From Candidatus Gottesmanbacteria bacterium (GTDB lineage Bacteria > Patescibacteriota > Microgenomatia > UBA10105 > UBA927), in contig JAZDOQ010000027.1 of the NCBI GenBank assembly GCA_043798445.1, positions 1,265-65,264 on the forward strand: DNA of 64,000 nucleotides, given 5' to 3'. How positions within the stretch are numbered: position 1 is the first letter of the stretch; the number at the start of each line of letters is the position of its first letter. The position numbers and the translations under genes were made by a program. Positions 12,967 to 35,419 of this stretch are shown in pieces. Below the pieces are notes generated by a model. The model was not told where the DNA came from. It saw only the letters and a program-made list of their open reading frames with translations, and searched no databases.

Positions 12967-13323
12967 TTATGGCACCATCTGGATGCGAAATATTGTTAAG
13001 TTTTCAACCCCTGTTACTTGTTGGATAACAAGAAGAATAAGGTAGCTTCCTACGAGAACCGCAAGCCCAATGATGGCATTAGTGATCGTTCCCTTAGCTT
13101 TTTCCAGTTTTTTTTGATCTCCCCCGGAAAAAAGGAAGGTAAAACCTCCCATAACAAGCATGACAAATAATACAACCCCGGCTAACGCTGTAACAGCTTG
13201 AATAATGTTTGAGAACAAAGAGGCGAGCGATCCGATGGTTGCAACATCAGCAACTGCATCTGCGGGCAAATCACTTGCTTTTTCAAGATTAGTCCAGGTT
13301 GGAATTTGTGCAAGTATATTCAT
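12967..13323 (-). CDS. TrbC/VirB2-like T4SS pilin family protein (paralog 1)
   Basis: 118 aa with an N-terminal leader, a hydrophobic helix, the conserved GGDQKKLEKAKGTITNAIIGLAVLVGSYLILLVI motif and a second TM helix. Confidence 0.6.
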   Translation of the reverse strand: MNILAQIPTWTNLEKASDLPADAVADVATIGSLASLFSNIIQAVTALAGVVLFVMLVMGGFTFLFSGGDQKKLEKAKGTITNAIIGLAVLVGSYLILLVIQQVTGVENLTIFRIQMVP

Positions 13324-13346
13324 ACTATAATAAGTATATCAGATAT

Positions 13347-13375
13347 CAAAAACCCCGCATACGCGGGGTTTTTGT
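13347..13375 (-). terminator. bidirectional rho-independent terminator hairpin CCCCGCATACGCGGGG flanked by A5/T5
   Basis: Perfect 6-bp GC stem at 13353-13368 with T-runs on both sides, immediately downstream of pilin paralog 2. Confidence 0.7.
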
Positions 13376-13392
13376 ATATACTCTTATTTTTC

Positions 13393-13731
13393 TTAATATG
13401 GTTTTGGAAGGTTGATACCTTGTGAACCAATAATATTGACGCCTAAGAAACTCTGCACAAGCATCATAATTGCCCATGCCGCCCCGACGATAATAAGTCC
13501 GACAATTGCATGTGTAATTTTATTTCGTGCTGTTTCCATGGCTGCTTTGTCTCCACCTGAGGTAATCCACTGAAGACCGCCTAAGATAAGAAACAAAAAT
13601 GCCATAAGTGCTGCGAGAATAAGGAGTGTTCCGACGACCGCACTGACAAGTTGTCCAATATCAGTAATACGGACACCTGCCGGCTGTGGAACCGTGATAT
13701 CAGCTGCAAATAATTTTTCTAACATAAACAT
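13393..13731 (-). CDS. T4SS pilin family protein (paralog 2; followed by a strong terminator, candidate major pilin)
   Basis: LILGGLQWITSGGDKAAMETARNKITHAIVGLIIVGAAWAIMMLV; 112 aa. Confidence 0.6.
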   Translation of the reverse strand: MFMLEKLFAADITVPQPAGVRITDIGQLVSAVVGTLLILAALMAFLFLILGGLQWITSGGDKAAMETARNKITHAIVGLIIVGAAWAIMMLVQSFLGVNIIGSQGINLPKPY

Positions 13732-13782
13732 TCCCCCTTTTTAGAATAGATTTATTATACGATATATTTTTGCATTCAGCAA

Positions 13783-14127
13783 TCAACCCTTAAATGAAGG
13801 GATTATTAATGCTTTAATATCAATTCCCAGGAATTGTCCGACAAGGGTGAAAATTGCATACGCAGCGGCAACGATAACAAGCCCAACTAATGCGTTCGTA
13901 ATTTTATTCCGCGCTTGTTCAAGTTGCGCCTTTTCTCCACCCGATGTAAGCCATTGAATACCGCCCATGATCAGGTAAAGAAGTGTAAGAAGAAATGCAA
14001 AAATAAAAAGGAGTCCAACAATATTACTAATGAGACTCCCTATAATTGTTCCACCTCGTTCCGTGCTGCCGGAGCCAAGCGCGGGGGGAAGTACCGGATT
14101 TCGTAATTCTGCAAGTGTGTGATTCAT
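13783..14127 (-). CDS. T4SS pilin family protein (paralog 3)
   Basis: IMGGIQWLTSGGEKAQLEQARNKITNALVGLVIVAAAYAIF. The start was moved to the ATG at 14125-14127 (MNHTLAEL) to avoid a 125-nt overlap with the upstream gene. Confidence 0.55.
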   Translation of the reverse strand: MNHTLAELRNPVLPPALGSGSTERGGTIIGSLISNIVGLLFIFAFLLTLLYLIMGGIQWLTSGGEKAQLEQARNKITNALVGLVIVAAAYAIFTLVGQFLGIDIKALIIPSFKG

Positions 14128-14131
14128 ATTG

Positions 14132-14512
14132 TTATTTAAATTGAATAAGTTCTCCGACCGACGATGGCAAAAGAATGGTGTCCCAGCCAAAAAATTGTCC
14201 GGCAAGGGCAAGAATTGCCCAGCCGGCAACAACAACAACAAGTCCAATAAACGCATTGGATATTTTGTCGCGCGCCTCTGTTAGCTTTGCTTTGTCGCCA
14301 GCCGCAGTGATCCAACTGATGCCCCCCATGGTAACCTGTATAAGAAACCAAATAGCAGCAACAATAGTGAGAAGTCCGATAATCGCCGAGATGGCATTGG
14401 TAAATGCGGAGAATGCGGTTGGACCAGTAAATGTTGTTCCCCCGAAAGGACCGAGTCCTGCGTCTGGACCCGTGCCACCAATCTTTCCAAGATCAACAGC
14501 AAGTAGTTTCAT
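14132..14512 (-). CDS. T4SS pilin family protein (paralog 4)
   Basis: VTMGGISWITAAGDKAKLTEARDKISNAFIGLVVVVAGWAILA; 126 aa. Confidence 0.55.
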   Translation of the reverse strand: MKLLAVDLGKIGGTGPDAGLGPFGGTTFTGPTAFSAFTNAISAIIGLLTIVAAIWFLIQVTMGGISWITAAGDKAKLTEARDKISNAFIGLVVVVAGWAILALAGQFFGWDTILLPSSVGELIQFK

Positions 14513-14516
14513 ATAG

Positions 14517-14882
14517 TTATTTTCCTGGTCCGTAAATTATCGGATTAAGCATAAACATCGGATTACCGAACAATAAATAGCCAAATAATGCGGCAATGAC
14601 AAAAGATCCGGCAATGATGGCAAGACCCAAGAGTGTCTGCCAGATTTTGTCCCATGCTTTAGTAAGCGCTTTTGTGTCTCCGCCCGCGCTCATATAGCCA
14701 TATCCGGCAAGAATAAGATTAATAAACGCATAGATGCCTGCAACGGCGAAAATTAGACGGAGAATGTTGCTAAAAAACGGAACTAACCCCACATCCACAT
14801 TTCCATATTTGTTAAGAGGGTTTTCAATTTTTCCGATGATATCGGTTGCATCCTTGGCGTATATGCGTTCAATAAATGTCAT
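14517..14882 (-). CDS. T4SS pilin family protein (paralog 5)
   Basis: GYGYMSAGGDTKALTKAWDKIWQTLLGLAIIAGSFVIAALF; 121 aa. Confidence 0.5.
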   Translation of the reverse strand: MTFIERIYAKDATDIIGKIENPLNKYGNVDVGLVPFFSNILRLIFAVAGIYAFINLILAGYGYMSAGGDTKALTKAWDKIWQTLLGLAIIAGSFVIAALFGYLLFGNPMFMLNPIIYGPGK

Positions 14883-14883
14883 A

Positions 14884-15210
14884 TTATTTCGGTAAAATAG
14901 TCACTCCGGTAATAATTTCAATTATTTGTATAATCCAATACGATGCAAAAATAAGAACAAGACCTGTTATGGCTGAGGTGATTGCCTGTTTGCTTTGTTC
15001 GGCCTTTTTTGCGTCGCCACTACCTGCTGATACTATAAAGCTAAAACCGCCAAAAATCAATAAAACAAGAAAAATAACACCGGCAATTACAAATGCATTT
15101 TTAAGAAGAACATCAACAAATGCACCAATGGTTGGGAAAGATTTGGCCGGAGCGAAGGTTTGACCAATGTCAACTGTTGGTGCTGGAGTAGCGGCAAAAA
15201 TGCGTTCCAT
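14884..15210 (-). CDS. T4SS pilin family protein (paralog 6)
   Basis: IFGGFSFIVSAGSGDAKKAEQSKQAITSAITGLVLIFASYWII. The start was moved to the ATG at 15208-15210 (MERIFAAT). Confidence 0.5.
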   Translation of the reverse strand: MERIFAATPAPTVDIGQTFAPAKSFPTIGAFVDVLLKNAFVIAGVIFLVLLIFGGFSFIVSAGSGDAKKAEQSKQAITSAITGLVLIFASYWIIQIIEIITGVTILPK

Positions 15211-16058: not shown

Positions 16059-16676
16059 ATGAGGGGATCAATCCTACGTGGGTGTATTGGATTTATACGA
16101 TCATCAATCGGACTCATAACCACGCCGTATGAAACATATCGCCGGATTGTGAATCACGGATCGTTATGGGAGCTGGTTCCGCTCGGCGTGTTGCTTTCTT
16201 GCTATTTTGCCATATCTTCGTTAGTTAAAACTGCAGCGTTTCGTCCATACATATTAACAAAGCATTTTATTCTTCTTGCTATGGTTGTTCTCGCAACATA
16301 TTCCATAACTGTATTGTTATTATGGGGAGTTTCAAAGCTGTTGCGTGGAAAGGGTGACATCCGCTCATTGGGGATTGCGTGGGGATATACACTCATTCCA
16401 ACATTATTATGGTTTTTGGCAACATCACTTTTATACGTGATATTTCCTCCACCAAGAACAGGAAGACCATTGGGAATACTGTTTAGCGCACTTTATTTAT
16501 CATTTTCAACGGCGCTCTTTTTTTGGAAAGCCATGCTTTCATATTTGACACTTCGTTTTGGCATGCGGCTTGATTTGTGGAGGATTATTGCCGTGTTTTT
16601 TATAGTTGGAGGCGTGATGGCAATATATAGCATTGGGATGTATCGGTTGGGAATATTTAAAGTGCCGTTTATATAA
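16059..16676 (+). CDS. polytopic membrane protein (Yip1-like fold suspected)
   Basis: 205 aa with five hydrophobic helices; no catalytic motif. Confidence 0.3.
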   Translation: MRGSILRGCIGFIRSSIGLITTPYETYRRIVNHGSLWELVPLGVLLSCYFAISSLVKTAAFRPYILTKHFILLAMVVLATYSITVLLLWGVSKLLRGKGDIRSLGIAWGYTLIPTLLWFLATSLLYVIFPPPRTGRPLGILFSALYLSFSTALFFWKAMLSYLTLRFGMRLDLWRIIAVFFIVGGVMAIYSIGMYRLGIFKVPFI

Positions 16677-16680
16677 CACT

Positions 16681-17841
16681 ATGACGCTTAATAAAACAGA
16701 TACGGTTACAACACGACGGAAGGAAATAGAAAAACAATTACATGTAGCACTTTCTCATATTGGTTCGTTTTCACTCGATGAAAAAGTTGCGTCAACACGG
16801 CATTGTGAGAATATGATCGGTGCTACCCAAGTTCCGGTCGGTGTCGCAGGTCCACTTCGGCTTCGCTCAGTGCAAGCCCTTAAAAATAAAGACTATTTTA
16901 TTCCTTTGGCAACAACAGAAGGGGCGCTTGTTGCCTCAGTAAATCGTGGATGTAAAGTAATCACCGAAAGCGGTGGAGCAATAGTTGATAGTTGTCATGT
17001 TGGTTCAACGCGCGGACCGGTTTTTTATACAAAAAATCTGGAGGAGAATGACAGACTCAATATGTTTTTGGAAACACATCTTAAGGAGATGCAACACATT
17101 GCTCGGAGTACCTCAAGTCATATCTTTTTAACAAAAACGTTTTCTCAGGGGGTCGGTCAATATCACTATGTCCGTTTTATCTACGACACAAAAGATGCAA
17201 TGGGGCTGAACATGGTGACGATTGCTACAGATAAGATTACAAAATTTATAGAAGAAAAAACAGATATTGCGTGCATCTCACTTTCCGGAAATTATTGTGT
17301 CGATAAAAAACCGTCGTGGCTCAATTTCATTGAAGGGCGTGGATCAAAAGTGTGGGCAGAAGTAGTCATTCCAGAACGCGTTCTTAAAAAAATCTTAAAA
17401 ACCACAGCAAAAGGTGTGTATGATGTTTGGCTTTCAAAATGCATGATGGGAAGCATTATGAGCGGAGCAATGGGATATAACGCACAGTTTGCCAATGTCC
17501 TTGCTGCCATGTTTCTTGCAACAGGACAAGATATCGCACACATTGCAGAATGCGGTATTGGCGTAACAAATGCTGAAATCCGTGGAAAAAGTTTATACAT
17601 AAGCGTGTATCTTCCAGACCTCATGGTTGGAACCATTGGGGGAGGCACAGAACTTGCAACACAAAAAGAAGCACTGCAGATTCTTGATGTGTATGGAGGA
17701 GAAGACGGAAAGAATAGGAAGCTACTCATAGAAATCATTGGAGCCGCGGTGCTTGCAGGAGAAATCTCATTACTTGCAAGTTTGTCAGAAGGAACACTTG
17801 CAAAAGCACATCAAAAACTCGCGAGAGGAAAAACATCATGA
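16681..17841 (+). CDS. hmgA: class I (archaeal/eukaryotic-type) HMG-CoA reductase
   Basis: ENMIGATQVPVGVAGPL, DAMGLNMV and GTIGGGT motifs. The start was set to ATG 16681 (MTLNKTD) to avoid overlap. Confidence 0.85.
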   Translation: MTLNKTDTVTTRRKEIEKQLHVALSHIGSFSLDEKVASTRHCENMIGATQVPVGVAGPLRLRSVQALKNKDYFIPLATTEGALVASVNRGCKVITESGGAIVDSCHVGSTRGPVFYTKNLEENDRLNMFLETHLKEMQHIARSTSSHIFLTKTFSQGVGQYHYVRFIYDTKDAMGLNMVTIATDKITKFIEEKTDIACISLSGNYCVDKKPSWLNFIEGRGSKVWAEVVIPERVLKKILKTTAKGVYDVWLSKCMMGSIMSGAMGYNAQFANVLAAMFLATGQDIAHIAECGIGVTNAEIRGKSLYISVYLPDLMVGTIGGGTELATQKEALQILDVYGGEDGKNRKLLIEIIGAAVLAGEISLLASLSEGTLAKAHQKLARGKTS

Positions 17842-18881
17842 TGGGCATTGTTTCATACGGTACATATATACCAACATACAGAGTCAGCATTACTGATATA
17901 GCCGCTGCGTGGAAAAAGAATCCGCAGGAAATTGTGAGTGCGCTCGGTGTAAAAGAAAAAACAGTGCCCGGTGTTGACGAAGACGCAGTGACCATTGCAT
18001 TTGAAGCAGTATTTCAAAGCATGCAATCCTTCAAAGGGAAAGCATCAGATATAGAAGCACTGCTTATTGGTTCTGAAAGTCATCCGTATGCTGTTAATCC
18101 AACCTCAACGATCGTTGGAGAATTTTTAGGTATTGGAAATAACTATCTTGCATCAGACCTAGAATTTGCCTGTAAAGCCGGTACTGCCGGAATTCAAATG
18201 ATTGCAGGGCTTTTGTCGTCAGGTCAAATCAAATATGGACTTGCCGTTGGAACGGATACTGCACAAAGCAAACCTCATGACGCGCTCGAATATACATCCG
18301 CATCAGCGGGTGTTGCGGTCTTGATGGGAAAAACACGGGTTTGCACCTCACTTCTTTCATATACATCGTACTCATCAGATACACCGGATTTTTGGCGAAG
18401 AGACGGTATTCGATACCCTTCCCACGCGGGGCGATTTACCGGAGAACCAGCATATTTTGCCCATGTTGTTGGTGCAGCGATGCAATTAATGAAAAAAACA
18501 CATGTATTTCCAAAAGACATTGATTATTGTGTGTTTCATATGCCAAATGGAAAATTCCCAAGAGAAGTTGCAAGGCGATTAGGATTTATTGACACGCAGC
18601 TCGCTCCCTCGTTAACCGTTGATCATATCGGCAATCCGTATTCAGCTTCTTCCATGATGGGGCTTGCAGCGGTTCTTGATATCGCAAAACCAAACAAAAA
18701 AATTTTTATGGTGTCATACGGCTCAGGAGCAGGAAGCGATGCGTTTTTGTGGAAAACAACAGAACATATAAAAGAACTACAAACAAAACGGAAAAAACAA
18801 CATTGGTTAGTGAGTCAGCAAATAGAGGAAAAAACCTACGTTGATTATCTTGGGTATTTAAAACAAACACATAAAATATGA
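17838..18881 (+). CDS. archaeal-type HMG-CoA synthase
   Basis: MMGIVSYGTYIPTYRVSITDIAAAW...VPGVDEDAVTIAFEA; thiolase fold, 347 aa; overlaps the reductase by 4 nt. Confidence 0.8.
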   Translation: MMGIVSYGTYIPTYRVSITDIAAAWKKNPQEIVSALGVKEKTVPGVDEDAVTIAFEAVFQSMQSFKGKASDIEALLIGSESHPYAVNPTSTIVGEFLGIGNNYLASDLEFACKAGTAGIQMIAGLLSSGQIKYGLAVGTDTAQSKPHDALEYTSASAGVAVLMGKTRVCTSLLSYTSYSSDTPDFWRRDGIRYPSHAGRFTGEPAYFAHVVGAAMQLMKKTHVFPKDIDYCVFHMPNGKFPREVARRLGFIDTQLAPSLTVDHIGNPYSASSMMGLAAVLDIAKPNKKIFMVSYGSGAGSDAFLWKTTEHIKELQTKRKKQHWLVSQQIEEKTYVDYLGYLKQTHKI

Positions 18882-20029
18882 ACATAACGGTTGCCGGTTG
18901 CGGCATGACAAAATTTGGTGAACTGTGGGCAGCTTCACCACGCTCTCTTGCAAGAGAGGCCGTTGAGCAAGCAATTGGGGAAAGTGGCGTGGAGAAAAAG
19001 TCCATCCAAGGACTGTTTGTTGCCAACATGCTTGCGGGCATGCTTGGGATGCAGGCACATCTTGGTGCACTGTTTTCTGAAGAATTAGGATTATTTGTTC
19101 CCGCATATACAGTGGAAGGCGCGTGTGCATCCGGCGGGCTTGCGGTGCATGCAGGCGTTATGAGTATTCTTTCCGGACAATATGATACGGTTGTGGTGCT
19201 CGGTGTAGAAAAAATGACTGATCATAAACCGGAATCAGTGAGTTCTGCGCTCATGGGTGCTGGATCTAACGAAGAACGACTGGCAGGAGCAACGTTTCCA
19301 GGATTGTATGCGATGCTTGCGCGTAGCCACATGGAGAAATTTGGCACAACAGAAAAACAAATGGCAGCAGTTGCGGTAAAAAATCATTTTCATGCAAGTT
19401 TTAATTCAAATGCACAATTTTCTAACTGCATAACCATAGACCGGGTGTTGAAAAGTTCATGTATAGCAGACCCATTAAAACTACTTGATTGTTCTCCTGT
19501 AACCGATGGTGCAGCAGCGATAGTTCTAAAACGGGAAACGACCAATGGCAAACAATCTGGGGTACACATTATTGCTTCACAAATTGCAACAGACACACTT
19601 GGTCTTGCACAGCGGAAAAGCCTCCTTGAATTATCAGCAACTAAACGTGCCGCACAACGTGCATTTACACAAGCAGGGATCAGTGAAAAAGATATTGATA
19701 TTGCAGAGGTGCATGACTGCTTTACAATAGCTGAAATACTTGCAATTGAAGATATAGGGTTTGGGAAAAAAGGACAGGTTGCGAGAGATATAGAAAAAGG
19801 AGCATACACGCTCGGGACAGCAAGACATGTCGTTGTGAATTCGTCCGGCGGCTTAAAAGGGTGCGGTCATCCAATTGGTGCAACAGGAGTCAAACAGATT
19901 GTTGAAATAGTAAATCAGCTACGGGGAGTGTGTGGTAAACGACAAGTGAAAAATGCAACAGTAGGTCTTGCACATAATGTTGGCGGGAGTGGTGCAACGG
20001 CAGTGGTACATATAGTACAAAAAGGATAA
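18878..20029 (+). CDS. archaeal-type acetyl-CoA C-acetyltransferase (thiolase)
   Basis: MNITVAGCGMTKFGELW, active-site Cys region VEGACASGGLAVH, C-terminal GHPIGATG. Confidence 0.8.
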   Translation: MNITVAGCGMTKFGELWAASPRSLAREAVEQAIGESGVEKKSIQGLFVANMLAGMLGMQAHLGALFSEELGLFVPAYTVEGACASGGLAVHAGVMSILSGQYDTVVVLGVEKMTDHKPESVSSALMGAGSNEERLAGATFPGLYAMLARSHMEKFGTTEKQMAAVAVKNHFHASFNSNAQFSNCITIDRVLKSSCIADPLKLLDCSPVTDGAAAIVLKRETTNGKQSGVHIIASQIATDTLGLAQRKSLLELSATKRAAQRAFTQAGISEKDIDIAEVHDCFTIAEILAIEDIGFGKKGQVARDIEKGAYTLGTARHVVVNSSGGLKGCGHPIGATGVKQIVEIVNQLRGVCGKRQVKNATVGLAHNVGGSGATAVVHIVQKG

Positions 20030-20032
20030 TTT

Positions 20033-20332
20033 ATGATTAGTCCGGTTAAAATTTGGCGGAATCAAAAACATTATGCCCAGATGGTCGGCAAAACCGGCAG
20101 TATTATTTCCTGGACCATCATTCGTGTACCGCCAGACGGATTTAGTGAGCAAGCACCATATCCACTTGCGGTCGTTCAGCTTGATGACGGACTCCATATA
20201 ACAGCACAGGTTGTTGACTTGGAGTCAAAACAATTACACACAAAACAAAAAGTAATCACTATTATTCGTCGAACAATCGATACAACCGCTGATGGAGTGA
20301 TTCCATACGGCATTAAAGTAAAACCATTATGA
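20033..20332 (+). CDS. DUF35 OB-fold scaffold protein of the thiolase/HMGCS complex (no obvious Zn ribbon)
   Basis: 99-aa protein GSIISWTIIRVPPDGFSEQAPYPLAVVQLDDGLHITAQVVD, positioned exactly as the archaeal DUF35 partner of thiolase/HMGCS. Confidence 0.6.
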   Translation: MISPVKIWRNQKHYAQMVGKTGSIISWTIIRVPPDGFSEQAPYPLAVVQLDDGLHITAQVVDLESKQLHTKQKVITIIRRTIDTTADGVIPYGIKVKPL

Positions 20333-21267
20333 TTACGGTTTCAGTTCCGGGAAAAATTCATTTGATGGGAGAACATGCTGTTGTCTATGGAACACCCGCA
20401 TTGTTTGCTGTGATTAATAAACGAATGATTGTTTCTGTTGAGCATGCAAAAAAAATGGAAATCATTACATCGGAATCATCCGATTATGTGTTGTACGCGC
20501 TTGAAAAAGTAAAAGAACACGTAGGTCTTAACATACTTCCTCCTATGAAAATTACTATCACATCAGATATACCTGCAGGATTTCATCTCGGATCATCTGC
20601 GGCAACTGCTGTGGGGACGGTTGCAGCAACGATATATTTTTTAAAAAAATTGTGGAATCCAAATCAAATTAATGCCATTGCCTATGAAGTTGAAAAGAAG
20701 CAACACGGAAATCCATCGGGTGGAGATAATACCGCAGTAGCCATGGGGGGATTTGTTTGGTTTCGAAAAGAATTAGAGTTTTTGAAAAGCATATGGCAAC
20801 TGGACATACATATTCCTCCATCACTCAATCATTTCTTTCTCATCAATACAGGCAGACCAAAAGAAACAACGGGTGAAATGGTGACACTAGTCAAGTTACG
20901 ATTTGAAAAACATCCAAGCATAATGAAGCAGCAATTTTTGCGTAACGAAGAGCAAGTGAAGAGAATTGCCATAGCACTAAAGGAGCACGATGAAAAAGTA
21001 TTAATAGATGCGATACAAAAAGGTGAACAGACGCTTGAAAAAATCAGTGTCGTTTCGAAAAAAGTGACTCCCTGTATTCGCGAGGTTGAGGCATCGGGAG
21101 GTGCAGCAAAAATCCTTGGCGGTGGGGGAAAGAAGAATGGTGTTGGGTTTATACTTTGCTATCATACAAATAGTCATAAAATTGAAACCATAGGAAAAAG
21201 GTATGGATATGAAGTTCAACCTATTGTGTTAGGTGGTGAAGGCGTTCGTCTTGAACGAAAGGATTAA
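20329..21267 (+). CDS. mvk: GHMP kinase, mevalonate kinase
   Basis: SVPGKIHLMGEHAVVYG and TSDIPAGFHLGSSAATAV. Confidence 0.75.
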   Translation: MITVSVPGKIHLMGEHAVVYGTPALFAVINKRMIVSVEHAKKMEIITSESSDYVLYALEKVKEHVGLNILPPMKITITSDIPAGFHLGSSAATAVGTVAATIYFLKKLWNPNQINAIAYEVEKKQHGNPSGGDNTAVAMGGFVWFRKELEFLKSIWQLDIHIPPSLNHFFLINTGRPKETTGEMVTLVKLRFEKHPSIMKQQFLRNEEQVKRIAIALKEHDEKVLIDAIQKGEQTLEKISVVSKKVTPCIREVEASGGAAKILGGGGKKNGVGFILCYHTNSHKIETIGKRYGYEVQPIVLGGEGVRLERKD

Positions 21268-21272
21268 TATAT

Positions 21273-22196
21273 ATGATCACAGTATCAGCGCCAGGAAAGC
21301 TAATGCTTATGGGGGAACACGCAGTGGTGTACGGACACCCCTGTGTAGTCACTGCGGTTTCTGAACGACTGAGCGTTACTATCAAGGAAACGAATGACGG
21401 CAACGTAATAATTAATGCTCCACAGGTGAAAAATACCCGGTTTCTTGATCAGGCACTTCTTGATGGATGTGCAGCACTCGCCATTCAACACAAAGGATTA
21501 CACATTACTACACAAAGTTGTTTTTCAAACTGTTATGGATTTGGATCATCCTCTGCAGTTACCGTTGCAACACTTTTTGCGTTATCTAAGCTTTTTAATA
21601 AACATATCGATCCAAAGTCTTTGTTTCAACTAGCATATAAAACTGTGTTAACAATTCAAGGAGTAGGGTCTGGATTTGATGTTGCAGCAGCAACATACGG
21701 AGGAACGCTGCTCTATACAAAAGGCGGCAACACACTCGATCAATTAGCATGGGACATGAATGATGGCGTATCAGTTGTTGTTGGATATAGCGGAGTTAAA
21801 GCTGACACCTCATCAATTGTGAAAGAAGTTGCTAAGAAACGCGAGATACAAAAAGAACGAGTTGATAGGATTTTTGGAGCAATAGGAAAACTTGTTATTC
21901 AAGCAAAAGAGGCGGGAGACAAAAAAGATTGGGAGACAGTTGGGAAATTCATGAATTTTAATCAGGAATATCTTCGGGATTTAGGAGTAAGCACAGAAAA
22001 ACTGGAAACTATGATTCAAGCGGCAAAACAGACCGGTGCATATGGCGCAAAACTTTCAGGCGCCGGCGGAGGGGACTGTATGATCGCTCTTACCAGAAAA
22101 GATAAAAAGAAGGACGTTGAAGAGGCGATTGTTAAGGCGGGAGGAATAGTTGTTCCTGTGATAATTCATATAGAAGGGGTGCGGATAGATCAATGA
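21273..22196 (+). CDS. second GHMP kinase (phosphomevalonate kinase or alternative mevalonate-phosphate kinase)
   Basis: SAPGKLMLMGEHAVVYG and YGFGSSSAVTVA. It is a paralog of the preceding gene. Confidence 0.55.
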   Translation: MITVSAPGKLMLMGEHAVVYGHPCVVTAVSERLSVTIKETNDGNVIINAPQVKNTRFLDQALLDGCAALAIQHKGLHITTQSCFSNCYGFGSSSAVTVATLFALSKLFNKHIDPKSLFQLAYKTVLTIQGVGSGFDVAAATYGGTLLYTKGGNTLDQLAWDMNDGVSVVVGYSGVKADTSSIVKEVAKKREIQKERVDRIFGAIGKLVIQAKEAGDKKDWETVGKFMNFNQEYLRDLGVSTEKLETMIQAAKQTGAYGAKLSGAGGGDCMIALTRKDKKKDVEEAIVKAGGIVVPVIIHIEGVRIDQ

Positions 22197-23176
22197 TGAA
22201 GGCAACAGCACTAGCTCCGGCAAATATTGCTCTCATTAAATACTGGGGAAAACGGTCAGACGCGCTTCGTACGCCGCTTAACGATTCAATCTCCATGAAT
22301 TTAAGCGGTGCGCTGACAACGACAACAATAGAATTTTCTCCATTGTTTGAAGGTGATGATATTACGTTTGTTGGAGAAACACTATTAGAAAAAGAACATG
22401 AGCGAATCATTAAGCATCTTAATAGAATTCGAAAAATAGCCCGTAAAAAACTGTATGCTCGCGTGGTGACAAAAAATTCTTTTCCAAAAGGAGCCGGAAT
22501 TGCATCATCAGCATCCGGATTTGCTGCATTAACCGTAGCAGCTGTTTGCGCACTCGGATTACAGCGTACAGAAAAGGAATTAACAATACTTTCGCGTATC
22601 GGATCAGGATCGGCATGTCGAAGTATTCCTGATGGTTTTTCGTGGTGGCACGCCGGAAAGAAATCTTCTCAGTCATACGCAGAATCTATTTTTCCAGCAT
22701 CGTGGTGGAACATACGCGATGTTCTTTGTGTTGTTTCAAAAGAAGCAAAAAAAATATCAAGCACAGAAGGAATGGATGGAATAAAGACAAGTCCGTATTG
22801 GAAAACGCGCATGCGGGGAATCCCCGGAAAAATTGATAGGGCGCTTCATGCATTAAAAGAACGAAACATGGAATTGCTGGGAAACCTTCTTGAGGAGGAT
22901 GCAATTTCAATGCACTGCGTCATGATGACACAAAAACCACCGCTCTTTTATTGGAATGAATCTACCCTTCGGGTGATAGAGGCTGTTTACGCGCTTAGGA
23001 AAAATGGAATAGCTGCATATTATACGATGGACGCGGGTCCGAATGTCCATGTTATTTGTAAAGGTGAAGACGAGGATGAAGTGAGCAGGCAAATGAAACA
23101 GGTATATGGTGTCCAGTCTGTTATTATTAACAAGCCAGCACTAGGAACTCACAGTATTTCAAATCATTTATTTTAA
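22193..23176 (+). CDS. diphosphomevalonate decarboxylase family protein (MVD/PMD)
   Basis: APANIALIKYWGKRSD N-terminus, GHMP-like fold, 327 aa. Confidence 0.75.
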   Translation: MMKATALAPANIALIKYWGKRSDALRTPLNDSISMNLSGALTTTTIEFSPLFEGDDITFVGETLLEKEHERIIKHLNRIRKIARKKLYARVVTKNSFPKGAGIASSASGFAALTVAAVCALGLQRTEKELTILSRIGSGSACRSIPDGFSWWHAGKKSSQSYAESIFPASWWNIRDVLCVVSKEAKKISSTEGMDGIKTSPYWKTRMRGIPGKIDRALHALKERNMELLGNLLEEDAISMHCVMMTQKPPLFYWNESTLRVIEAVYALRKNGIAAYYTMDAGPNVHVICKGEDEDEVSRQMKQVYGVQSVIINKPALGTHSISNHLF

Positions 23177-23864: not shown

Positions 23865-24203
23865 CTACTTAAATGTATCTCCGATAGCCGTAATACCAAA
23901 GACAATTCCTAAAAGTTGTGTAATCCAATAAGCCAAAAAAATAATAACAAATCCAACTACTCCATAAGTAAGTGTTTGTTTCCCCTTTTCCATTTTTTTA
24001 GCATCTCCAGCACTGGTAAGAAGTGTGAATCCTGCACTAATAATCATGATAAGGAGCACAATACCCGCTATGGGGAGTGCGAATTTATATATATTAGAAA
24101 GAATAGTACCGATGGTAACATTTTTATCACCCAGTGGGCCAACTAGATTAGGAGTTCCAGGAAGAGTTAATTTTTGTGCGAGTAAGTGATCCATATTATT
24201 CAA
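23865..24203 (-). CDS. T4SS pilin family protein (paralog 7)
   Basis: IISAGFTLLTSAGDAKKMEKGKQTLTYGVVGFVIIFLAYWI; start overlaps the upstream gene stop by 8 nt. Confidence 0.55.
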   Translation of the reverse strand: MNNMDHLLAQKLTLPGTPNLVGPLGDKNVTIGTILSNIYKFALPIAGIVLLIMIISAGFTLLTSAGDAKKMEKGKQTLTYGVVGFVIIFLAYWITQLLGIVFGITAIGDTFK

Positions 24204-25101
24204 ATCCTGGAATTCTTAATATTTTAACCCCAATTAATTGTAGGAGAAAAATTGAAAAGATGATAAGAAGAAGTCCTGTGATTGCTGCACTGATCAGTTC
24301 TTTTCCTGCGTTAAGTTTTTCTGGGTTTCCAGCAGACATCATTATTTGCAAAGCGCCGAAAAGAATAAGAAGAAATGCTATTCCTCCAGCTATACCGATA
24401 CCAAAAGGAAGAAACGTATTAATTATTCCAGAGGGTGATGCATCAATGCATCCAATTGCGGTCCATACTTTTTTTTCAGCTTTCATACAATCATCACAAG
24501 CTTCTTTTTGAGGAGATATGAAAGTATTGCAGACATAACCAGCCGAGGCTGGTTGTGTAGGTGTATTAGGACATCCTGCCTTTGATGTACAACATTTATA
24601 ACTTGAGCCTGGGCATAAGTGTATATAACTTGAATAATCAATGTTTGAGCCAGCGATAGTAGGGGGACAGCCAGTAAATTTAAAGGGATCTCCATAGACA
24701 CATTTATACGCTGGCGTTGGCGGGAATGGTGGACATCCCGTCTTTGGATCGCAACATTTTTTTGGATTGAATCCAGGACAATTTACATATCCAGATTTAC
24801 TACATACGCTATCAAATCCAATAATTCCCACGTCGTCTATACATTTTTTAATTGGAGTTGGTGAGGCGTTGTTAGAAATACAAGAACATCCTGCAGTAGC
24901 GCATGTAGAGATTGTGCCGGCACAACGAGCTGTTGTCCCAGTGGGGCATTTGTTCATTGTAGCATCTACTTCACACGAAAGATCGCCAACGCCATAATGG
25001 CTGACATTTTTACATTCACACGTTTGTGCAAAAATTTTTGTCGGATTTTGAAAAAGAACGACAAGAAGAAAAGCAAAGATAAATAAAATTAGTTTTTTCA
25101 C
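24196..25101 (-). CDS. secreted Cys-rich protein with a C-terminal T4SS-pilin domain (candidate minor/tip pilin)
   Basis: Signal peptide MKKLILFIFAFLLVVLFQNPTKIFAQT, then ~200 aa with about 27 Cys and an internal repeat (KKCCDPKTGCPPFPPTP / YKCCTSKAGCPNTPTQP). The C-terminus LQIMMSAGNPEKLNAGKELISAAITGLLLIIFSIFLL is a pilin module. Confidence 0.55.
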   Translation of the reverse strand: MKKLILFIFAFLLVVLFQNPTKIFAQTCECKNVSHYGVGDLSCEVDATMNKCPTGTTARCAGTISTCATAGCSCISNNASPTPIKKCIDDVGIIGFDSVCSKSGYVNCPGFNPKKCCDPKTGCPPFPPTPAYKCVYGDPFKFTGCPPTIAGSNIDYSSYIHLCPGSSYKCCTSKAGCPNTPTQPASAGYVCNTFISPQKEACDDCMKAEKKVWTAIGCIDASPSGIINTFLPFGIGIAGGIAFLLILFGALQIMMSAGNPEKLNAGKELISAAITGLLLIIFSIFLLQLIGVKILRIPGFE

Positions 25102-25161
25102 TCCTTAAGTGTATCATGAGCTCCACTTTAAAGAAAAGGGCATGATAGAATAGAAAGACGC

Positions 25162-26871
25162 ATGAAATATGTATTTCATTTCATTTCCGTTTTGTTTTTT
25201 TGTTTATTAGTCTTTTCCCCATTAAAGAATATATATGCGCAATCATGTGATTCTTCTTGTGCAAATACGATTGAATGTCAACAAAAGATTGCAAAGTGCC
25301 AGGAAGCATGGGATCAGATGGAAGCAGCAAAAAAACCCCACGTTGATACGCTTCGTAAGATGGAAGCAGATATCGCTGCGTTTTTAAATCGCATCAAAAT
25401 CATCGAAGCGGAGATGGTTAAAAAAGCAGCTGCAATTATTGAAGGAGAAAAGGAATTGGGATCACTTCTTGTTGTTGCAAATCGAAGAATCCGTTCTTTT
25501 TACATGCGGTCTTCAAATACTAATCTCATTGCGGTATTACTTTCTTCTTCTGATGTTGGGACTGCGCTTCGAAGTTATGGCTATCAACAGGCCGTGACAA
25601 ATGAAGATAAGCGGGTGATTACGCAAACAGCGGTGATGGTAAAAGATCTGGAAAATAAAAAGAAAAAACTTGAAGGTGAACGCATAACGCTTGCGAGTAT
25701 GAAAGAAGATGTGGATAGGCGGGCAATATCCGTACGGAAGCTTGTCGGTGATGCAAACGCGTATCAATCAAAACTGTCTACCACAATTGCTAGTTTAACC
25801 GCATTGCAAGTGGCTATTTTGAATGCTAAAACAGGTACGTTTCAAACAAGCGTAGGCGATGTTCCACTTGCTGATGATGCCGCGAGCAGACCGGATTATA
25901 ATCCCGGGTTTTCTCCAGCGTTCGCAGCGTTTTCTTTTGGCGCACCGCACTATAGGGGGATGAGTCAATATGGAGCATTTGGAAGAGCAAAGCAGGATCA
26001 AAACTATGAAACGATTTTGCGGGCATACTATGGTGGAGGGATTGAAATTAGAGATCATAATCCAGACGCACAAATATCAGTGGACGGATACGGAACATAC
26101 TCTCTTGAAGAATATGCAAAACGGATTTATGAAATGCCTGGCTCATGGGGTGATGAGGGTGGGATGGAAGCGTTGAAAGCGCAAGCAATCGCGGCAAGAA
26201 GTTATGCGCTAGCTCGCGGCGGTTCTATTTGTGCCACAGAGAGTTGTCAGGTGTTTAAGCCTGAGCCTAAAGGTGGAAATTGGGAAAAAGCAGTGAATGA
26301 CACGAGAGGGAAGGTTGTGTACGCAAACGGGTCTCCATTTTCGACATGGTATGCTTCCACGAGCGGTGGATACCAAGAATCGTATAGTGCTAATGGGTAT
26401 TCAACTCCTGGTTTTTGGGATACGCAGAATGGTCGAGCGGGCTGGACAAGTCAAGCGTACGAAAAAATAGGTGGAAGTCCATGGTTTTATAAAGCATGGT
26501 ACAAAAATAGAGCAGGTGATAGTTGTGGAAGAAGCCATCCGTGGTTAACAAGTGAGGAGATGGCAGACATTCTAAATGCATGGGTAGTTTTATACCAAGG
26601 TGGTGGTGACAGCTCCAGGGTGACGCCAACATCATCATGTTGGGGTGGAAATCCGTACTCAATGTCAGAACTTCGATCTATTGGAGGATACACAAACGTT
26701 TCAGGAGTATCAGTGACGTATTCAGAAGCAGGGGTAACCTCGACAGTCACGTTTCAAACGAATAAAGGAAGCGTTCCCATTACAGGTGCTGATTTTAAGA
26801 AAGCATTTAATCTTCGTGCTCCAGGCCGCGTTTCACTGATGAGTGGCTTGTTTAATATTGAGCGGAAGTAG
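25162..26871 (+). CDS. secreted coiled-coil protein with C-terminal SpoIID/LytB-like domain
   Basis: Signal peptide plus ~230 aa coiled coil. GAPHYRGMSQYGAFGRAKQDQNYETILRAYYGG matches the SpoIID/LytB signature. Confidence 0.6.
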   Translation: MKYVFHFISVLFFCLLVFSPLKNIYAQSCDSSCANTIECQQKIAKCQEAWDQMEAAKKPHVDTLRKMEADIAAFLNRIKIIEAEMVKKAAAIIEGEKELGSLLVVANRRIRSFYMRSSNTNLIAVLLSSSDVGTALRSYGYQQAVTNEDKRVITQTAVMVKDLENKKKKLEGERITLASMKEDVDRRAISVRKLVGDANAYQSKLSTTIASLTALQVAILNAKTGTFQTSVGDVPLADDAASRPDYNPGFSPAFAAFSFGAPHYRGMSQYGAFGRAKQDQNYETILRAYYGGGIEIRDHNPDAQISVDGYGTYSLEEYAKRIYEMPGSWGDEGGMEALKAQAIAARSYALARGGSICATESCQVFKPEPKGGNWEKAVNDTRGKVVYANGSPFSTWYASTSGGYQESYSANGYSTPGFWDTQNGRAGWTSQAYEKIGGSPWFYKAWYKNRAGDSCGRSHPWLTSEEMADILNAWVVLYQGGGDSSRVTPTSSCWGGNPYSMSELRSIGGYTNVSGVSVTYSEAGVTSTVTFQTNKGSVPITGADFKKAFNLRAPGRVSLMSGLFNIERK

Positions 26872-30009: not shown

Positions 30010-30394
30010 GGGGATGTACGATTCGACAGTTTGATGCTCTTTAACACTGCAGGTCGACTTTGATATTTGGTCGTTAACTAATTATCAAAAAAATACATGC
30101 TGATAACGATGAGTTAGAAGCAGCCCGATATGCTCCGGCTTGGGCCGCGCGAGCAGCTTACGCTTACGCATAAAGGGACGCCGTAATCGCATTCGCTTTG
30201 GTGATGTCTACGGTGTAAAAACAGCCGAAGTGCAATTTTTCTGGTTTGATGTTCCAGATAAACAAAGTTTAATACATCTTGATCCGCCGGATCTTGTCAA
30301 TTCGGTTGAGGGCGGATGACAATTGTTGATTGACTACACCTGTAGATGTGTTTGGAATGTCAGATTGGACCCGGGCTCACCCCCGGCATCTCCA
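30010..30394 (+). ncRNA. ssrA: tmRNA (ssrA)
   Basis: Starts 6 nt after smpB with GGGGATGTACGATTCGACAG (the conserved GGGG...GATTCGAC tmRNA 5' end). The 3' end CATCTCC-A pairs with 5' GGGGATG, including a G3:U wobble. T-arm CCGGG/CCCGG. An in-frame candidate tag ORF ends ...AARAAYAYA-TAA. Confidence 0.75.
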
Positions 30395-30401
30395 CAACTG
30401 T

Positions 30402-31645: not shown

Positions 31646-31730
31646 GGAGGGTGACTCAAACGGCTAAGAGACAAGTTTGCTAAACTTGCATCGCGCAAGC
31701 GGTGAGTGGGTTCGACTCCCACACCCTCCG
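31646..31730 (+). tRNA. tRNA-Ser (anticodon GCT)
   Basis: Acceptor GGAGGGT/ACCCTCC, anticodon loop TTGCTAA, long variable arm, T-arm GTGGGTTCGACTCCCAC. Confidence 0.8.
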
Positions 31731-31770
31731 CATTGAAATATCTTACCAAGTGTAGCGAGGTTAGAGATTT

Positions 31771-31866
31771 CAATGCTCAGAACGCGAATAGCGATTCTGA
31801 GAGTCCTTGAAAATTTTCGAGTTTAGAAATGACAATGCTCAGAAGGTGTTAGCAATTCTGAGTGTC
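31771..31866 (+). repeat. two copies of a ~35-nt hairpin unit CAATGCTCAGAA-(11-13 nt)-TTCTGAG between the two tRNA-Ser genes
   Basis: CTCAGAA/TTCTGAG perfect 7-bp inverted repeats at 31776-31801 and 31838-31862. Flanking ATTGAAATAT/ATTTCAATG also recurs after both tRNAs. Confidence 0.6.
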
Positions 31867-31876
31867 AATATTTTTT

Positions 31877-31967
31877 GGAGAGGTCGCATAGTTGGTCTAG
31901 TGCGGTAGTCTTGAAAACTACTAGGGGCGCAAGCTCCTCGCGAGTTCGAATCTCGCCCTCTCCGCCA
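31877..31967 (+). tRNA. tRNA-Ser (anticodon TGA), CCA encoded
   Basis: Acceptor GGAGAGG/CCTCTCC, anticodon loop CTTGAAA, long variable arm, T-arm GCGAGTTCGAATCTCGC. Confidence 0.8.
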
Positions 31968-32059
31968 TCACGGACGAACATAAATTTTCAATTGAAATAT
32001 GCGTTTGTAGCGTTACAAAAATACGTTCTGACTTTGAAGTACTGAAAATTTCTTTTAAA

Positions 32060-32092
32060 GCTGACAGACGGCGGGATTAGAACCTAATAAAA
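32060..32092 (+). promoter_or_regulatory. promoter-like motif copy 1: CTGACA-(GACGGCGGGATTAGAAC)-CTAATAAAAT
   Basis: A -35-like hexamer, a 17-nt spacer containing the conserved GGGATTAGAAC, and an AT-rich -10-like box, ~90 nt upstream of the ORF at 32180. Confidence 0.4.
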
Positions 32093-32179
32093 TAGATTGA
32101 TTGTCCAACAATATCAAGACATCGCTTTTTAAGCAACGAAATAGTGGAATAACTGAAAAACAATTAGACTAATTGATTT

Positions 32180-32863
32180 ATGAGAAAAACTCCTCGAACC
32201 CAATATAAAAGTAATCTGGGCGACTTATTCATAGACGTTAAAAAAAATCACGAGATTTTTTGCCTTGTAGACCAAATTTTTCACAAAGAATCACCCTTAA
32301 CAATACTTCTTGAAGGTTCCGCTGATGTTAAAAATATTGAAATACTAGTTGATGTTATTAAGTTTCGCAAAAATCCAAAAGATATCATTGTTCTTATAGA
32401 TATCAATTCTCAATCAATTAAGGAACATAAACAACATATTATCAATAAACGCTTAGTTTCTTCTTGTCAGGCCATGGTCGCCGATATGAACGATCTGCCA
32501 TTTGATGATCACTCAATTGATCTAGTGATAAATTATTTTACTGTTAATTTTAATACATCAGATAGGGATGATGATCAAACGATTGCAGAAATTCAGCGTG
32601 TACTCAAACCAGGAATGTCCGCTTGTTTATTTTCAGTATATGTGTCTGATGAAAGCAATAAAGTTGCTGACAGAGGTTATGCTCATGGTGCTCGGAAAAA
32701 GGATACAACTTTCACATTCCCAGCAGTTTATTATCAATCAGCGTTTAAAAAATATTATTTGAAGTGTGTTAACTTTGCTTTACAGAACGGAACTGATCAA
32801 CAATATCTGTCATATCGTCGTTTTCTTTTAATGTTACAATCACCATCTCCACAAAATATATGA
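32180..32863 (+). CDS. class I SAM-dependent methyltransferase-like protein (divergent)
   Basis: Post-I/II motifs MVADMNDLPFDDHSIDLVINYFTVNF...IAEIQRVLKPGM. The glycine-rich motif I is degenerate. Confidence 0.35.
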   Translation: MRKTPRTQYKSNLGDLFIDVKKNHEIFCLVDQIFHKESPLTILLEGSADVKNIEILVDVIKFRKNPKDIIVLIDINSQSIKEHKQHIINKRLVSSCQAMVADMNDLPFDDHSIDLVINYFTVNFNTSDRDDDQTIAEIQRVLKPGMSACLFSVYVSDESNKVADRGYAHGARKKDTTFTFPAVYYQSAFKKYYLKCVNFALQNGTDQQYLSYRRFLLMLQSPSPQNI

Positions 32864-34134
32864 ATACTCAAGCCTTTATTTCAGATAGTAATACATATCA
32901 TGAATTTCTGGATAGCATCTACCGTGTTGAACAGGGTCAGCAGGCTAAATTTTCTATGCACTCATCCATAACACCTGCAATTTTAGATGAAAAAGAGGCG
33001 AACGGATTTATAAATAGATATGAAATTATTCAACAATATTTAAAAATATCAGAAAAAATCTTTAAAGATAGCTTGTTTGATAATTCTCACAGTAGAATTA
33101 GGGACTTGATTCTTAACGAAGTAAATCCTGATTTCTCCGTCTCGTATCACCGTGAGCTTTATAGTAAAAAAACGAGTACTCCTTATTTTTTTCGAACTGA
33201 CGAAAGTGTACCAGGAAAAATTTCTGAAATTCAGTATGGTGGTTCTCTATGGGGAATGGTTGATGTATTACAACAATCTCTAGAAGTGTTATCTACCTTG
33301 GTAGATATTCCGATTCGGAGTTTTAATCAAGTAAAAATAACTGAAATATTTGCAGAAATTATTAAAGACTTAACAAACAATGATCCATTAATATTTCATC
33401 AAATTGATGAAAGCTCAAATATGTTGGATATGAACTTATTCATCTCACTCTCGAGGAAATATGGTTTGAAGTATTTAGGAAGAGATTATGATGTATCACT
33501 AAATAATGTAAATTTTATTCGAACCCATTCATTTCTAGAAGAAGTAACAAATAGTAATTTTATTGGTTTTTTGGAAAAATATCATAAAGGAACGCTTCTA
33601 TTTGACATATTTCCTAGTGTGCTTTTTTTTCAAAAACTTCCGCTTATGCTCCCATTCTGGGAAGAAACAAAAAATTATTATCCCGATAGTGTTCGTGATA
33701 TTTTTCCATTTAGCTCTTTAGTTGGTGACGATGATGTGATTTTGGAAAGCGGTGCGCATCTAACAATTGATGAATTTGTAAGATTGAAAGCTGGTGAGAG
33801 AAATTATTATTTAAAATATGCAGGTATGAATGGAAATATTAATTGGGGTGCAAAAAGCGTGTATCAATTAAGTAATAGCAGTGTTCAATGTAAAAAACTA
33901 CTTCAAACGGCTGCAGAACAATTTAGAAGAGGACAATACTGGATAATACAGAAGGCGTATCATAAAAAAGAGAGTGTTAGCTATGTGAGTGAAGACAGTG
34001 TTGTCACAAAACCTATGTACACAAAATATAGTGGATTTTACGGTCCAAAAGGATTTATGGGTGGGCACGTAATGACAAGATCGTTTTATAAGGTACATGG
34101 TCAAAACGAAGGTGTTTGTAGACTAATTCTATAA
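32860..34134 (+). CDS. hypothetical protein (424 aa), translationally coupled to the methyltransferase-like gene
   Basis: ATGA start/stop overlap. FRTDESVPGKISEIQYGGSLWG is weakly reminiscent of circularly permuted ATP-grasp/GSP-synthetase-like enzymes. Confidence 0.3.
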   Translation: MNTQAFISDSNTYHEFLDSIYRVEQGQQAKFSMHSSITPAILDEKEANGFINRYEIIQQYLKISEKIFKDSLFDNSHSRIRDLILNEVNPDFSVSYHRELYSKKTSTPYFFRTDESVPGKISEIQYGGSLWGMVDVLQQSLEVLSTLVDIPIRSFNQVKITEIFAEIIKDLTNNDPLIFHQIDESSNMLDMNLFISLSRKYGLKYLGRDYDVSLNNVNFIRTHSFLEEVTNSNFIGFLEKYHKGTLLFDIFPSVLFFQKLPLMLPFWEETKNYYPDSVRDIFPFSSLVGDDDVILESGAHLTIDEFVRLKAGERNYYLKYAGMNGNINWGAKSVYQLSNSSVQCKKLLQTAAEQFRRGQYWIIQKAYHKKESVSYVSEDSVVTKPMYTKYSGFYGPKGFMGGHVMTRSFYKVHGQNEGVCRLIL

Positions 34135-34146
34135 TTTATTCGAAAA

Positions 34147-34176
34147 TAGGTTATAACATTGTCAATGGTTCTCCGC
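34147..34176 (+). repeat. motif B copy 1: TAGGTTATAAC-ATTGTCA-ATGGTTCTCCGC
   Basis: Contains the palindrome GTTATAAC. A second copy is at 37321-37350. Confidence 0.5.
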
Positions 34177-34220
34177 AGAAGTCACTTCAATTTCTTCAGT
34201 GTGTAGTATATACTGACTAT

Positions 34221-35413: not shown

Positions 35414-35419
35414 AAACGG

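Follow-up and report, generated by a model that had tools for sequence, protein, structure and literature searches.

A VirB2-like pilin with a hypervariable, cysteine-rich N-terminal domain in Candidatus Gottesmanbacteria, a candidate surface-display subunit

A large part of bacterial diversity belongs to the Patescibacteria, most of which live attached to other cells, and a survey of their type IV secretion systems (T4SS) identified neither an adhesin nor a tip protein (PMC12102498). What role, then, might be played by an exported, cysteine-rich protein whose C-terminus resembles the pilins of these systems? The question is raised by an open reading frame (ORF) of Candidatus Gottesmanbacteria bacterium, located at 24196-25101 on the minus strand of a 64,000-nucleotide stretch of contig JAZDOQ010000027.1 (assembly GCA_043798445.1), here called the window. 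We propose, at a probability of roughly 45%, that it encodes a modular VirB2-like pilin that displays a hypervariable, disulfide-stabilised domain on the surface of the cell or of a pilus and is expressed together with a small partner pilin. The 'pilin' annotation is already known, the NCBI record of the identical protein being titled 'MAG: pilin [Candidatus Gottesmanbacteria bacterium]', as are the pilin arrays of Patescibacteria; new, as far as the searched literature shows, is the ectodomain-bearing subfamily to which the extended pilin, as we call it, belongs. A literature search found no description of a subfamily that combines a signal peptide, a variable cysteine-rich ectodomain, a four-cysteine knot and a conserved hairpin at a fixed locus.

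The C-terminal hairpin identifies the protein as a pilin. Pfam family PF18895 (T4SS_pilin) matches residues 225-290, corresponding to profile positions 7-71 of 71 (E=7e-6, 26.5 bits), and is also matched by 119 of 120 homologues (E<=1e-3), several long family members exceeding its cut-off (26.8-29.1 bits). When the family profile was aligned by hhalign to one built from the seven small pilins of the window, the probability was 97.8% (E=1.3e-12, 74 columns). In the AlphaFold2 (AF2) model, helices 223-255 and 260-294, each of 33-35 residues, are joined by the loop SAGNPEK with a predicted local distance difference test score (pLDDT) of 79-95. Judged from these comparisons, the C-terminus is a genuine T4SS-type (VirB2-like, PF18895) pilin module and not a generic anchor. 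The helix pair described in the first-pass annotation of this DNA is thereby borne out, and the alternative raised there, an anchor with no match to a hidden Markov model, does not describe what was found. PF18895 is the sole Pfam family matched at E<=1 and no NCBIfam family is assigned, which leaves the protein without a VirB5/TraC/CagL match, without a PF04956 (TrbC/VirB2) match at E<=1 in the Pfam scan, and without the N_methyl or TIGR02532 motif of type IV pilins in both scans. Sub-threshold PF04956 matches occur in two small paralogues only (E=1.6e-4 and 2.8e-3).

Directly ahead of the hairpin stands the four-cysteine knot, modelled as two short helices and a beta-hairpin (WTAIGC) with a pLDDT of 91-95 over residues 191-230. 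Its residues C191, C202, C205, W213, T214, A215, G217 and C218 are invariant or nearly so, and minimal family members retain only C-x5-11-TAIGC ahead of the hairpin. Altogether residues 186-294 are confidently modelled, and a typical relative of 187 residues gives the same pattern. In a comparison of 84 fetched related loci, knot and hairpin (residues 191-301) are present in 84/84 with a median identity of 57%, compared to 64% for UppS, 68% for SmpB, 46% for the partner pilin and 46% for a neighbouring SpoIID-domain protein. Gly, Gln, Ser, Asn, Pro and Glu are invariant at many positions within and between the helices. Because of these invariant polar, Gly and Pro positions and the high median identity, the hairpin is, as far as its sequence tells, too conserved for a mere anchor.

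This conservation bears directly on another explanation, in which the protein is anchored in the membrane and exposed at the surface without ever polymerising, the hairpin serving as an anchor or as a static dock at the T4SS channel and the cysteine-rich stalk as a receptor, spacer or envelope component. An N-terminal load of 190 residues would indeed be atypical of VirB2-type subunits, the small pilins of the window having 109-126 residues. Simple anchors, however, drift in all but hydrophobicity, whereas this hairpin is better conserved than the partner pilin and holds invariant positions; its predicted helices exceed the span of a bilayer, as is typical of pilins, and its gene is tightly coupled to that of a bona fide small pilin. 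We therefore regard a non-polymerising anchored protein as unlikely, with further points in its favour given below.

At the other end, residues 1-25 (MKKLILFIFAFLLVVLFQNPTKIFA) have the features of a Sec signal peptide, i.e. a KK n-region, a hydrophobic core of 14 residues and an I-F-A cleavage motif, in agreement with the first reading of the sequence. The Ala preceding the first Cys is nearly invariant across the family. All 24 Cys fall within residues 28-218, where they make up 12.4% compared to 1.1% in the long ORFs of the window; the enrichment noted earlier thus holds, while the count of about 27 given with it was too high. The layout consists of three modules (M1-M3, with 8 + 6 + 6 Cys) with Pro/Thr-rich linkers between them, at residues 75-86 and 124-133 on either side of M2, followed by the four-cysteine segment. 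The orthologue P0002 keeps every Cys of M1, and P0005, P0009, P0010, P0025 and P0052 have comparable CxC...CxC modules. M3 represents the six-Cys part of a 10-Cys layout that is common in the family, has three nearly invariant positions in the 120-sequence alignment (C134, C145 and C171) and recurs in P0003 and P0004 at 61% identity. The motif KCC-x2-K-x-GCP, whose duplication had been noticed before, is indeed present twice, at residues 115 and 169. The surrounding copies of CPG-x4-KCC-x2-K-x-GCP are identical at 15 of 30 positions (BLASTP E=1e-5), and at the protein level M2 and M3 are the products of an ancient duplication; a DNA-level repeat search of the gene finds no trace of it.

An even number of cysteines is found in 100 of the 115 database homologues counted and in 71 of the 80 locus proteins, the odd counts mostly reflecting one Cys inside the signal peptide, and this parity is a strong sequence signature of disulfide pairing. 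MdbA-like oxidoreductases and VKOR are enriched in bacteria of the candidate phyla radiation (bioRxiv 10.1101/335083). Two further cysteine-rich exported proteins, which the first-pass annotation had linked to this one, do exist in the window: a membrane-anchored protein whose final 127 residues hold 14 Cys (37379-38089, plus strand), and a prepilin with 12 Cys (57062-57859, plus strand). The latter is of the type IV pilus class (N_methyl/TIGR02532 motif) and hence belongs to another pilin superfamily than the extended pilin. Together with the SpoIID-domain protein, these even-Cys exported proteins fit a predicted disulfide-rich exoproteome.

Small disulfide-rich modules of knottin-like composition also bring to mind a released toxin or signalling peptide, for which the hairpin would be merely a carrier or export module. 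Single family members give Toxin_12 and TNFR-domain hits, which we rejected as being at chance level; no Pfam toxin family is found in the target, no conserved cleavage site separates ectodomain and knot, and it is precisely the knot and the hairpin that are conserved. A released peptide is thus extremely improbable.

The relation between core and ectodomain becomes clear when the family is considered as a whole. A database search returned 588 homologues, and relatives were detected in 292 of the species-representative genomes scanned. Named records mostly belong to the Microgenomates group (Gottesman-, Blackburn-, Roizman-, Shapiro-, Woese- and Beckwithbacteria); one is labelled Taylorbacteria, and many record names are uninformative. 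Protein length ranges from 115 to 665 residues and that of the variable region from 0 to 331, with 147 sequences falling into 55 BLAST clusters. The commonest types hold 4 or 10 Cys. With 24 Cys the target stands at the elaborate end and, on this comparison, is a complex form within a large family rather than a one-off fusion. Its own ectodomain (residues 26-190) can be recognised in no more than 2 of the 84 loci, and exhaustive phmmer against 1.84 billion representative proteins recovered the orthologue P0002 and a partial match to P0003 only; two further hits, Cys-free repeat proteins matching the Pro/Thr linkers, were discarded as spurious. The same fusion is thus found in relatives with respect to the core, and hardly at all with respect to this ectodomain. 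Ectodomain type is moreover discordant with the genomic backbone, as judged by the flanking genes: locus L002, which has the most similar ones (SmpB 85%, p602 72%), encodes a 187-residue, 10-Cys protein, yet the 24-Cys type is shared with L001/L005, which are more distant than L002.

Two members illustrate the range of attached domains. The 426-residue protein of L060 (5014-6294, plus strand) begins with an N-terminal membrane or signal anchor followed by a VWA domain (E=1.6e-18), from which a Pro-rich linker leads to the Cys knot and the pilin hairpin; it is encoded without a partner small pilin. The 665-residue protein of L053 carries an extra tail with 6 Cys beyond its C-terminal LPGFE. In L033, L038, L052 and L064 the upstream sequence ends in ...IPGF/LPGF followed by a stop, meaning two tandem extended pilins in each of these genomes. 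Two explanations were rejected. Diversification of the type driven by diversity-generating retroelements is not indicated, as the gene has neither a template/variable repeat pair nor a tandem repeat; the ectodomain-coding part has no repeat of at least 30 nucleotides, the one 30-nucleotide match, A-rich and at chance level, lies in the signal-peptide codons, and no reverse transcriptase is among the window proteins scanned. A mobile or phage origin is contradicted by zero relatives in 2.9 million viral contigs and by conserved chromosomal synteny.

The family, in which an outer part of near zero to more than 300 residues is attached to a conserved core, is reminiscent of flagellins and type IV major pilins. 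The extended pilin could accordingly be a major, shaft-forming subunit with an ectodomain on each copy, yielding a bottle-brush filament with a strain-variable surface; minimal members of 115-130 residues have ordinary pilin size, and flexible Pro/Thr linkers would permit radial extension of the modules. The geometry is difficult, though: by rough estimate, an F-type pilus of 87 Å (PMC5018250) leaves an outer surface of some 700-1000 Å² per subunit, which is tight for 190-330 residues, and the seven ectodomain-free small pilins encoded here are the more obvious shaft subunits. We consider a shaft role very unlikely.

The extended pilin is accompanied by a small pilin gene lying immediately downstream in 76 of the 84 related loci, which supports, from gene order, the earlier suggestion that the two form a unit apart from the six-gene pilin array found elsewhere in the window. 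The partner gives a sub-threshold NCBIfam match to the Mbov_0395 pilin-like protein (E=1.7e-7). Since its orthologues nearly all begin with M-x(1-4)-(L/F)-A-Q, its start is probably the ATG at 24194, giving a TAA-T-ATG arrangement with a 1-nucleotide gap; the 8-nucleotide overlap reported previously holds only for a TTG start at 24203, to which the orthologue N-termini do not point. In nearly all of about 45 related loci inspected (L001-L045), the start reads M-x(1-4)-(L/F)-A-Q-x-(L/I)-x-(L/I)-P. All seven small PF18895 pilins of the window lack a Sec signal peptide and begin with M-x(0-4)-[LIFT]-[LFY]-A-[QAEVK] (e.g. MDHLLAQ, MNILAQ and MERIFAA), a pattern that could mark the site where a short leader is removed, or else a mature N-terminus that is conserved. 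Agrobacterium VirB2 is cleaved between Ala and Gln prior to cyclisation.

A comparison of the upstream regions of orthologues identified an extended -10-like element (cATGATACACTTAA). Among 82 related loci, 60 have the motif TGnTAnA[C/G]T ahead of the predicted start, 52 of them at a distance of 6-9 nucleotides, and within the window the motif is unique to this site. The GTG start is common to close relatives, and an AAGGAG sequence directly abuts it with zero spacer. As the -10-like element ends only a few nucleotides before the GTG, the mRNA from which the gene is translated probably lacks a leader. A generic scan for sigma-70 promoters and terminators returned sites no more numerous than in shuffled sequence.

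The pairing of usually one extended gene with one partner pilin would also suit a tip or initiator subunit that replaces VirB5, being loaded first on a VirB6-like platform and pushed outward by addition at the base until the ectodomain caps the filament. VirB5 has been reported only in rare Gram-negative-type systems (PMC12102498), the canonical VirB5 pentamer initiates assembly and finishes at the tip (PMC12857230), and a bulky ectodomain is sterically easiest to place there. Against this stand the two tandem copies in some genomes, the lack of VirB5-family similarity and a pilin fold that provides no intrinsic restriction to the tip, and we find the tip subunit quite unlikely. The first-pass annotation had argued for a tip adhesin from minor pilins acting as such in type IV and T4SS pili; for T4SS this premise is inaccurate, the known tip protein there being VirB5 and not a pilin (PMC12857230), and minor-pilin adhesins being a feature of type IV pili. 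Of its two parts, the adhesin gains indirect support from the hypervariable ectodomain on a conserved core, from the VWA domain of L060 and from the lack of an adhesin in the surveyed systems, whereas the tip is unsupported. Adhesin function is hence plausible, and a tip location speculative.

Table 1 Features of the extended pilin gene, its product and the related genes of the window
Feature	Residues	Position	Strand	Description	Basis or location
ORF (extended pilin)		24196-25101	minus	301 residues, GTG start	
Sec-type signal peptide	1-25	25027..25101	minus	MKKLILFIFAFLLVVLFQNPTKIFA, cleavage before QT	Hydropathy and motif; AF2 helix 2-24
Cys module M1	28-74	24880..25020	minus	8 Cys, CxC...CxC	
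Cys module M2	87-123	24733..24843	minus	6 Cys, first internal-repeat copy (..CPG..KCC..K.GC)	
Cys module M3	134-177	24571..24702	minus	6 Cys, second repeat copy	
Four-Cys knot	191-218	24448..24531	minus	C-x10-C-x2-C-x7-WTAIGC	Membrane-proximal
VirB2-like pilin hairpin	219-301	24199..24447	minus	Conserved IPGF tail	PF18895, hhalign, AF2
Extended -10-like element		25105..25118	minus	cATGATACACTTAA	Few nucleotides upstream of GTG start
Partner small pilin		23865..24194	minus	109 residues from ATG 24194	PF18895, 50.9 bits
VirB4-like ATPase		224-2092	minus		Profile scan
TrsD-like protein		2103-2753	minus		Profile scan
PrgI/VirB3-like protein		2760-4010	minus		Profile scan
Coupling-protein-like ATPase		4101-6278	plus		Profile scan
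1273-residue protein		7644-11465	plus	No Pfam or NCBIfam match	Flanks six-pilin array
Polytopic membrane protein		11471-12928	minus	485 residues, with signal peptide	Adjoins six-pilin array
Six small PF18895 pilins		12967..15210	minus	All Cys-free	

The genes listed in Table 1 indicate, from their profile matches, that the window carries a monoderm-type T4SS, and its layout together with the pilin array agrees with published Patescibacteria systems (PMC12102498, PMC12857230, PMC10633639). The 485-residue membrane protein is a candidate divergent VirB6, a component described in a 2025 survey as highly divergent and scarce in Microgenomatia (PMC12102498). T4SS genes and array lie 9-24 kb from the extended pilin, separated by genes of the mevalonate pathway of isoprenoid synthesis. 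Closer by, a SpoIID-domain gene is divergent upstream in 70 of the 84 loci and uppS is convergent in 66.

In the window the SpoIID-domain gene (25162-26871, plus strand) is 60 bp from the pilin gene and encodes a signal peptide, a PcsB-like coiled coil and a SpoIID/LytB domain, with 4 Cys by one count and 8 after the signal peptide by another. Its product could be a VirB1-like wall-opening enzyme or a division hydrolase; we take the VirB1 analogy as a lead only, as the PcsB-like coiled coil and the housekeeping synteny suit a cell-division hydrolase equally. Its identity is 44% in L002 (SmpB 85%), yet 72-76% in the more distant L009, L010, L025, L028 and L078, and this uncoupling from the neighbours suggests allelic types or recombination.

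Further observations concern the surroundings. The site at 16633-23176 is flanked by uppS and, on the opposite side, by Yip1, a sigma factor and the pilin array; it holds the mevalonate pathway in the window, L001, L002 and L004, and genes of the methylerythritol phosphate pathway (IspD, IspE, IspF, IspG, IspH and Dxr) in L003/L012, as though one precursor pathway for isoprenoids had been exchanged for the other in place. The tmRNA gene lies immediately 3' of smpB (30010-30397, plus strand), four tRNA-Ser and two tRNA-Arg genes stand among short ORFs at 31646-36241 (plus strand), and GC content falls to 32% at 32-34 kb. Finally, a repeated composite intergenic element of about 90-140 nucleotides (46628-46727, 48320-48462, 49853-49994, 50466-50503, 51446-51545 and 52577-52614), with copies 62-92% identical, a TCCGA...TCGGA stem-loop, a TTGACA-containing segment and no Rfam match, precedes consecutive and functionally unrelated genes (HopA1-like, subtilase, GNAT acetyltransferase, Fic, LD-carboxypeptidase and DUF5674).

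Returning to the proposal of a pilin that displays a variable domain, we envisage the following. The extended pilin would be co-transcribed with the downstream small pilin, probably from the leaderless promoter, and its signal peptide would direct export of the N-terminal 193 residues. Signal peptide and two membrane helices together predict that both termini lie outside and the SAGNPEK loop in the cytoplasm. In F-pilin, both termini are on the pilus exterior and the inter-helix loop is in the lumen (PMC5018250), and as the predicted topology equals this arrangement, the N-terminal domain is expected to be displayed outward; the 6-Cys tail of L053 is consistent with an outward-facing C-terminus. 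The 24 Cys would form 12 extracytoplasmic disulfides by means of an MdbA/VKOR-type oxidase encoded elsewhere in the genome. Knot and hairpin would dock into a T4SS-associated pilin assembly alongside small pilins, leaving the variable ectodomain displayed on the cell or pilus surface, where it would most likely touch the surface of host or partner cells. That the ectodomain turns over so extremely while the core stays constant might reflect host-range adaptation or evasion.

Several points weigh against this proposal. A PF18895 pilus in Patescibacteria has been described as a possibility only and none has been observed (PMC12857230), so that polymerisation is assumed. Distances of about 9 kb to the pilin array and about 18 kb to the T4SS ATPases set the gene apart; the genes conserved around it are of the housekeeping kind, and the synteny may mirror a stable backbone only. 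Both the undemonstrated pilus and the position outside the T4SS cluster are also what a non-polymerising anchored protein would lead one to expect. The PF18895 score of the target is 0.1 bit under the 26.6-bit gathering cut-off, and Foldseek returned no significant match to solved conjugative pilins in the PDB, the top rank for the model of a relative being the archaeal conjugation pilin 8dfu at only E=3.9; helical hairpins are low-information fold queries, and we treat the fold evidence as neutral. Structure prediction, suggested earlier as a check, gave a confident knot and hairpin and a cysteine-rich part with a pLDDT of 35-60 (below 60 in M1), from which no fold or binding site can be named and, with alignments of 120 and of 55 sequences, no disulfide map derived. 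The oxidase looked for in the same context was not found, none of the DsbA/DsbB/VKOR/thioredoxin-fold type being present among the approximately 70 ORFs of the 64-kb window that were scanned (Pfam). Lastly, the only relative with a recognisable adhesion domain, L060, is encoded at a different genomic location.

With its invariant core and hypervariable exported domain, the extended pilin is a concrete candidate for a host-contact element; the type of ectodomain provides a sequence marker that could be set against host identity in metagenomes, and the protein a natural labelling handle for the putative pilus. If the protein is only membrane-anchored, it would be an ordinary lineage-specific surface antigen. 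A broader version would have one conserved VirB2-like pilin act as display scaffold in Microgenomates-group bacteria, its mature N-terminus being a hot spot for swapping unrelated domains (Cys-knot stalks, beta-rich domains and VWA), as the first known T4SS pilin-adhesin fusion and the missing host-recognition determinant, with ectodomain type setting host range; in this general form we regard the idea as doubtful.

How does the extended pilin compare to known systems? Closest are the VirB2-like PF18895 pilins of the same phylum, which have a homologous two-helix hairpin; examples are the six pilins arrayed in Southlakia epibionticum ML1 (PMC10633639) and the arrays in the survey of Quinonero-Coronel et al. 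2025 (PMC12102498). The genome studied here likewise encodes six such pilins in an array, along with VirB4, PrgI/VirB3 and a coupling protein of a monoderm-type T4SS. In Southlakia, the sole species tested, T4SS and pilin array are essential for epibiotic growth (PMC10633639). The seven pilins of the described type in the window have, however, neither Cys nor a Sec signal peptide, whereas the extended pilin combines a Sec signal peptide, a four-cysteine knot and a 165-residue hypervariable ectodomain. Its core has a median identity of 57% between genomes, compared to about 25% reported among pilins within an array, and unlike the array pilins it occupies a conserved locus of its own.

With canonical VirB2/TrbC/TraA proteins (PF04956), the extended pilin shares termini predicted to lie outside, two long helices and a short polar loop facing cytoplasm or lumen, and differs in lacking a PF04956 match and a significant structural match. 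Mature canonical conjugative pilins have some 65-75 residues and no appended domain, and none of the canonical VirB2 proteins is known to bear a large ectodomain at its N-terminus.

Modular pilins are established in another monoderm, Streptococcus sanguinis, where the type IV pilins PilB and PilC carry a vWA and a lectin module, respectively (PMC8179133, PMC9934059), the former being the adhesive part of PilB (PMC8179133). As there, an assembly module is joined to a separate functional module, and L060 likewise uses a VWA domain. PilB and PilC, however, belong to type IV pili, with a class III signal peptide, a single N-terminal helix and a C-terminal module, whereas here a VirB2-like hairpin follows an N-terminal module. 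Measured against this class, the two-part architecture is established by sequence, AF2 and hhalign, and the adhesive role is putative.

VirB5, TraC and CagL of Gram-negative T4SS, proposed to contact host or recipient at the distal end of the pilus (PMC12857230), resemble the extended pilin in that proposed role; they are soluble helical proteins, not membrane-inserted pilins, and show no sequence relation to it. The closest parallel for the variation itself is found in the Trw system of Bartonella and the T4SS of Anaplasma, in which exposed pilus parts (copies of VirB2 and VirB5) diversify on constant machinery, read as host-range adaptation or immune evasion (cited in PMC12102498). There, variation arises from tandem small-pilin paralogues, whereas in the family presented here an appended domain appears to be replaced or expanded on one conserved orthologue.

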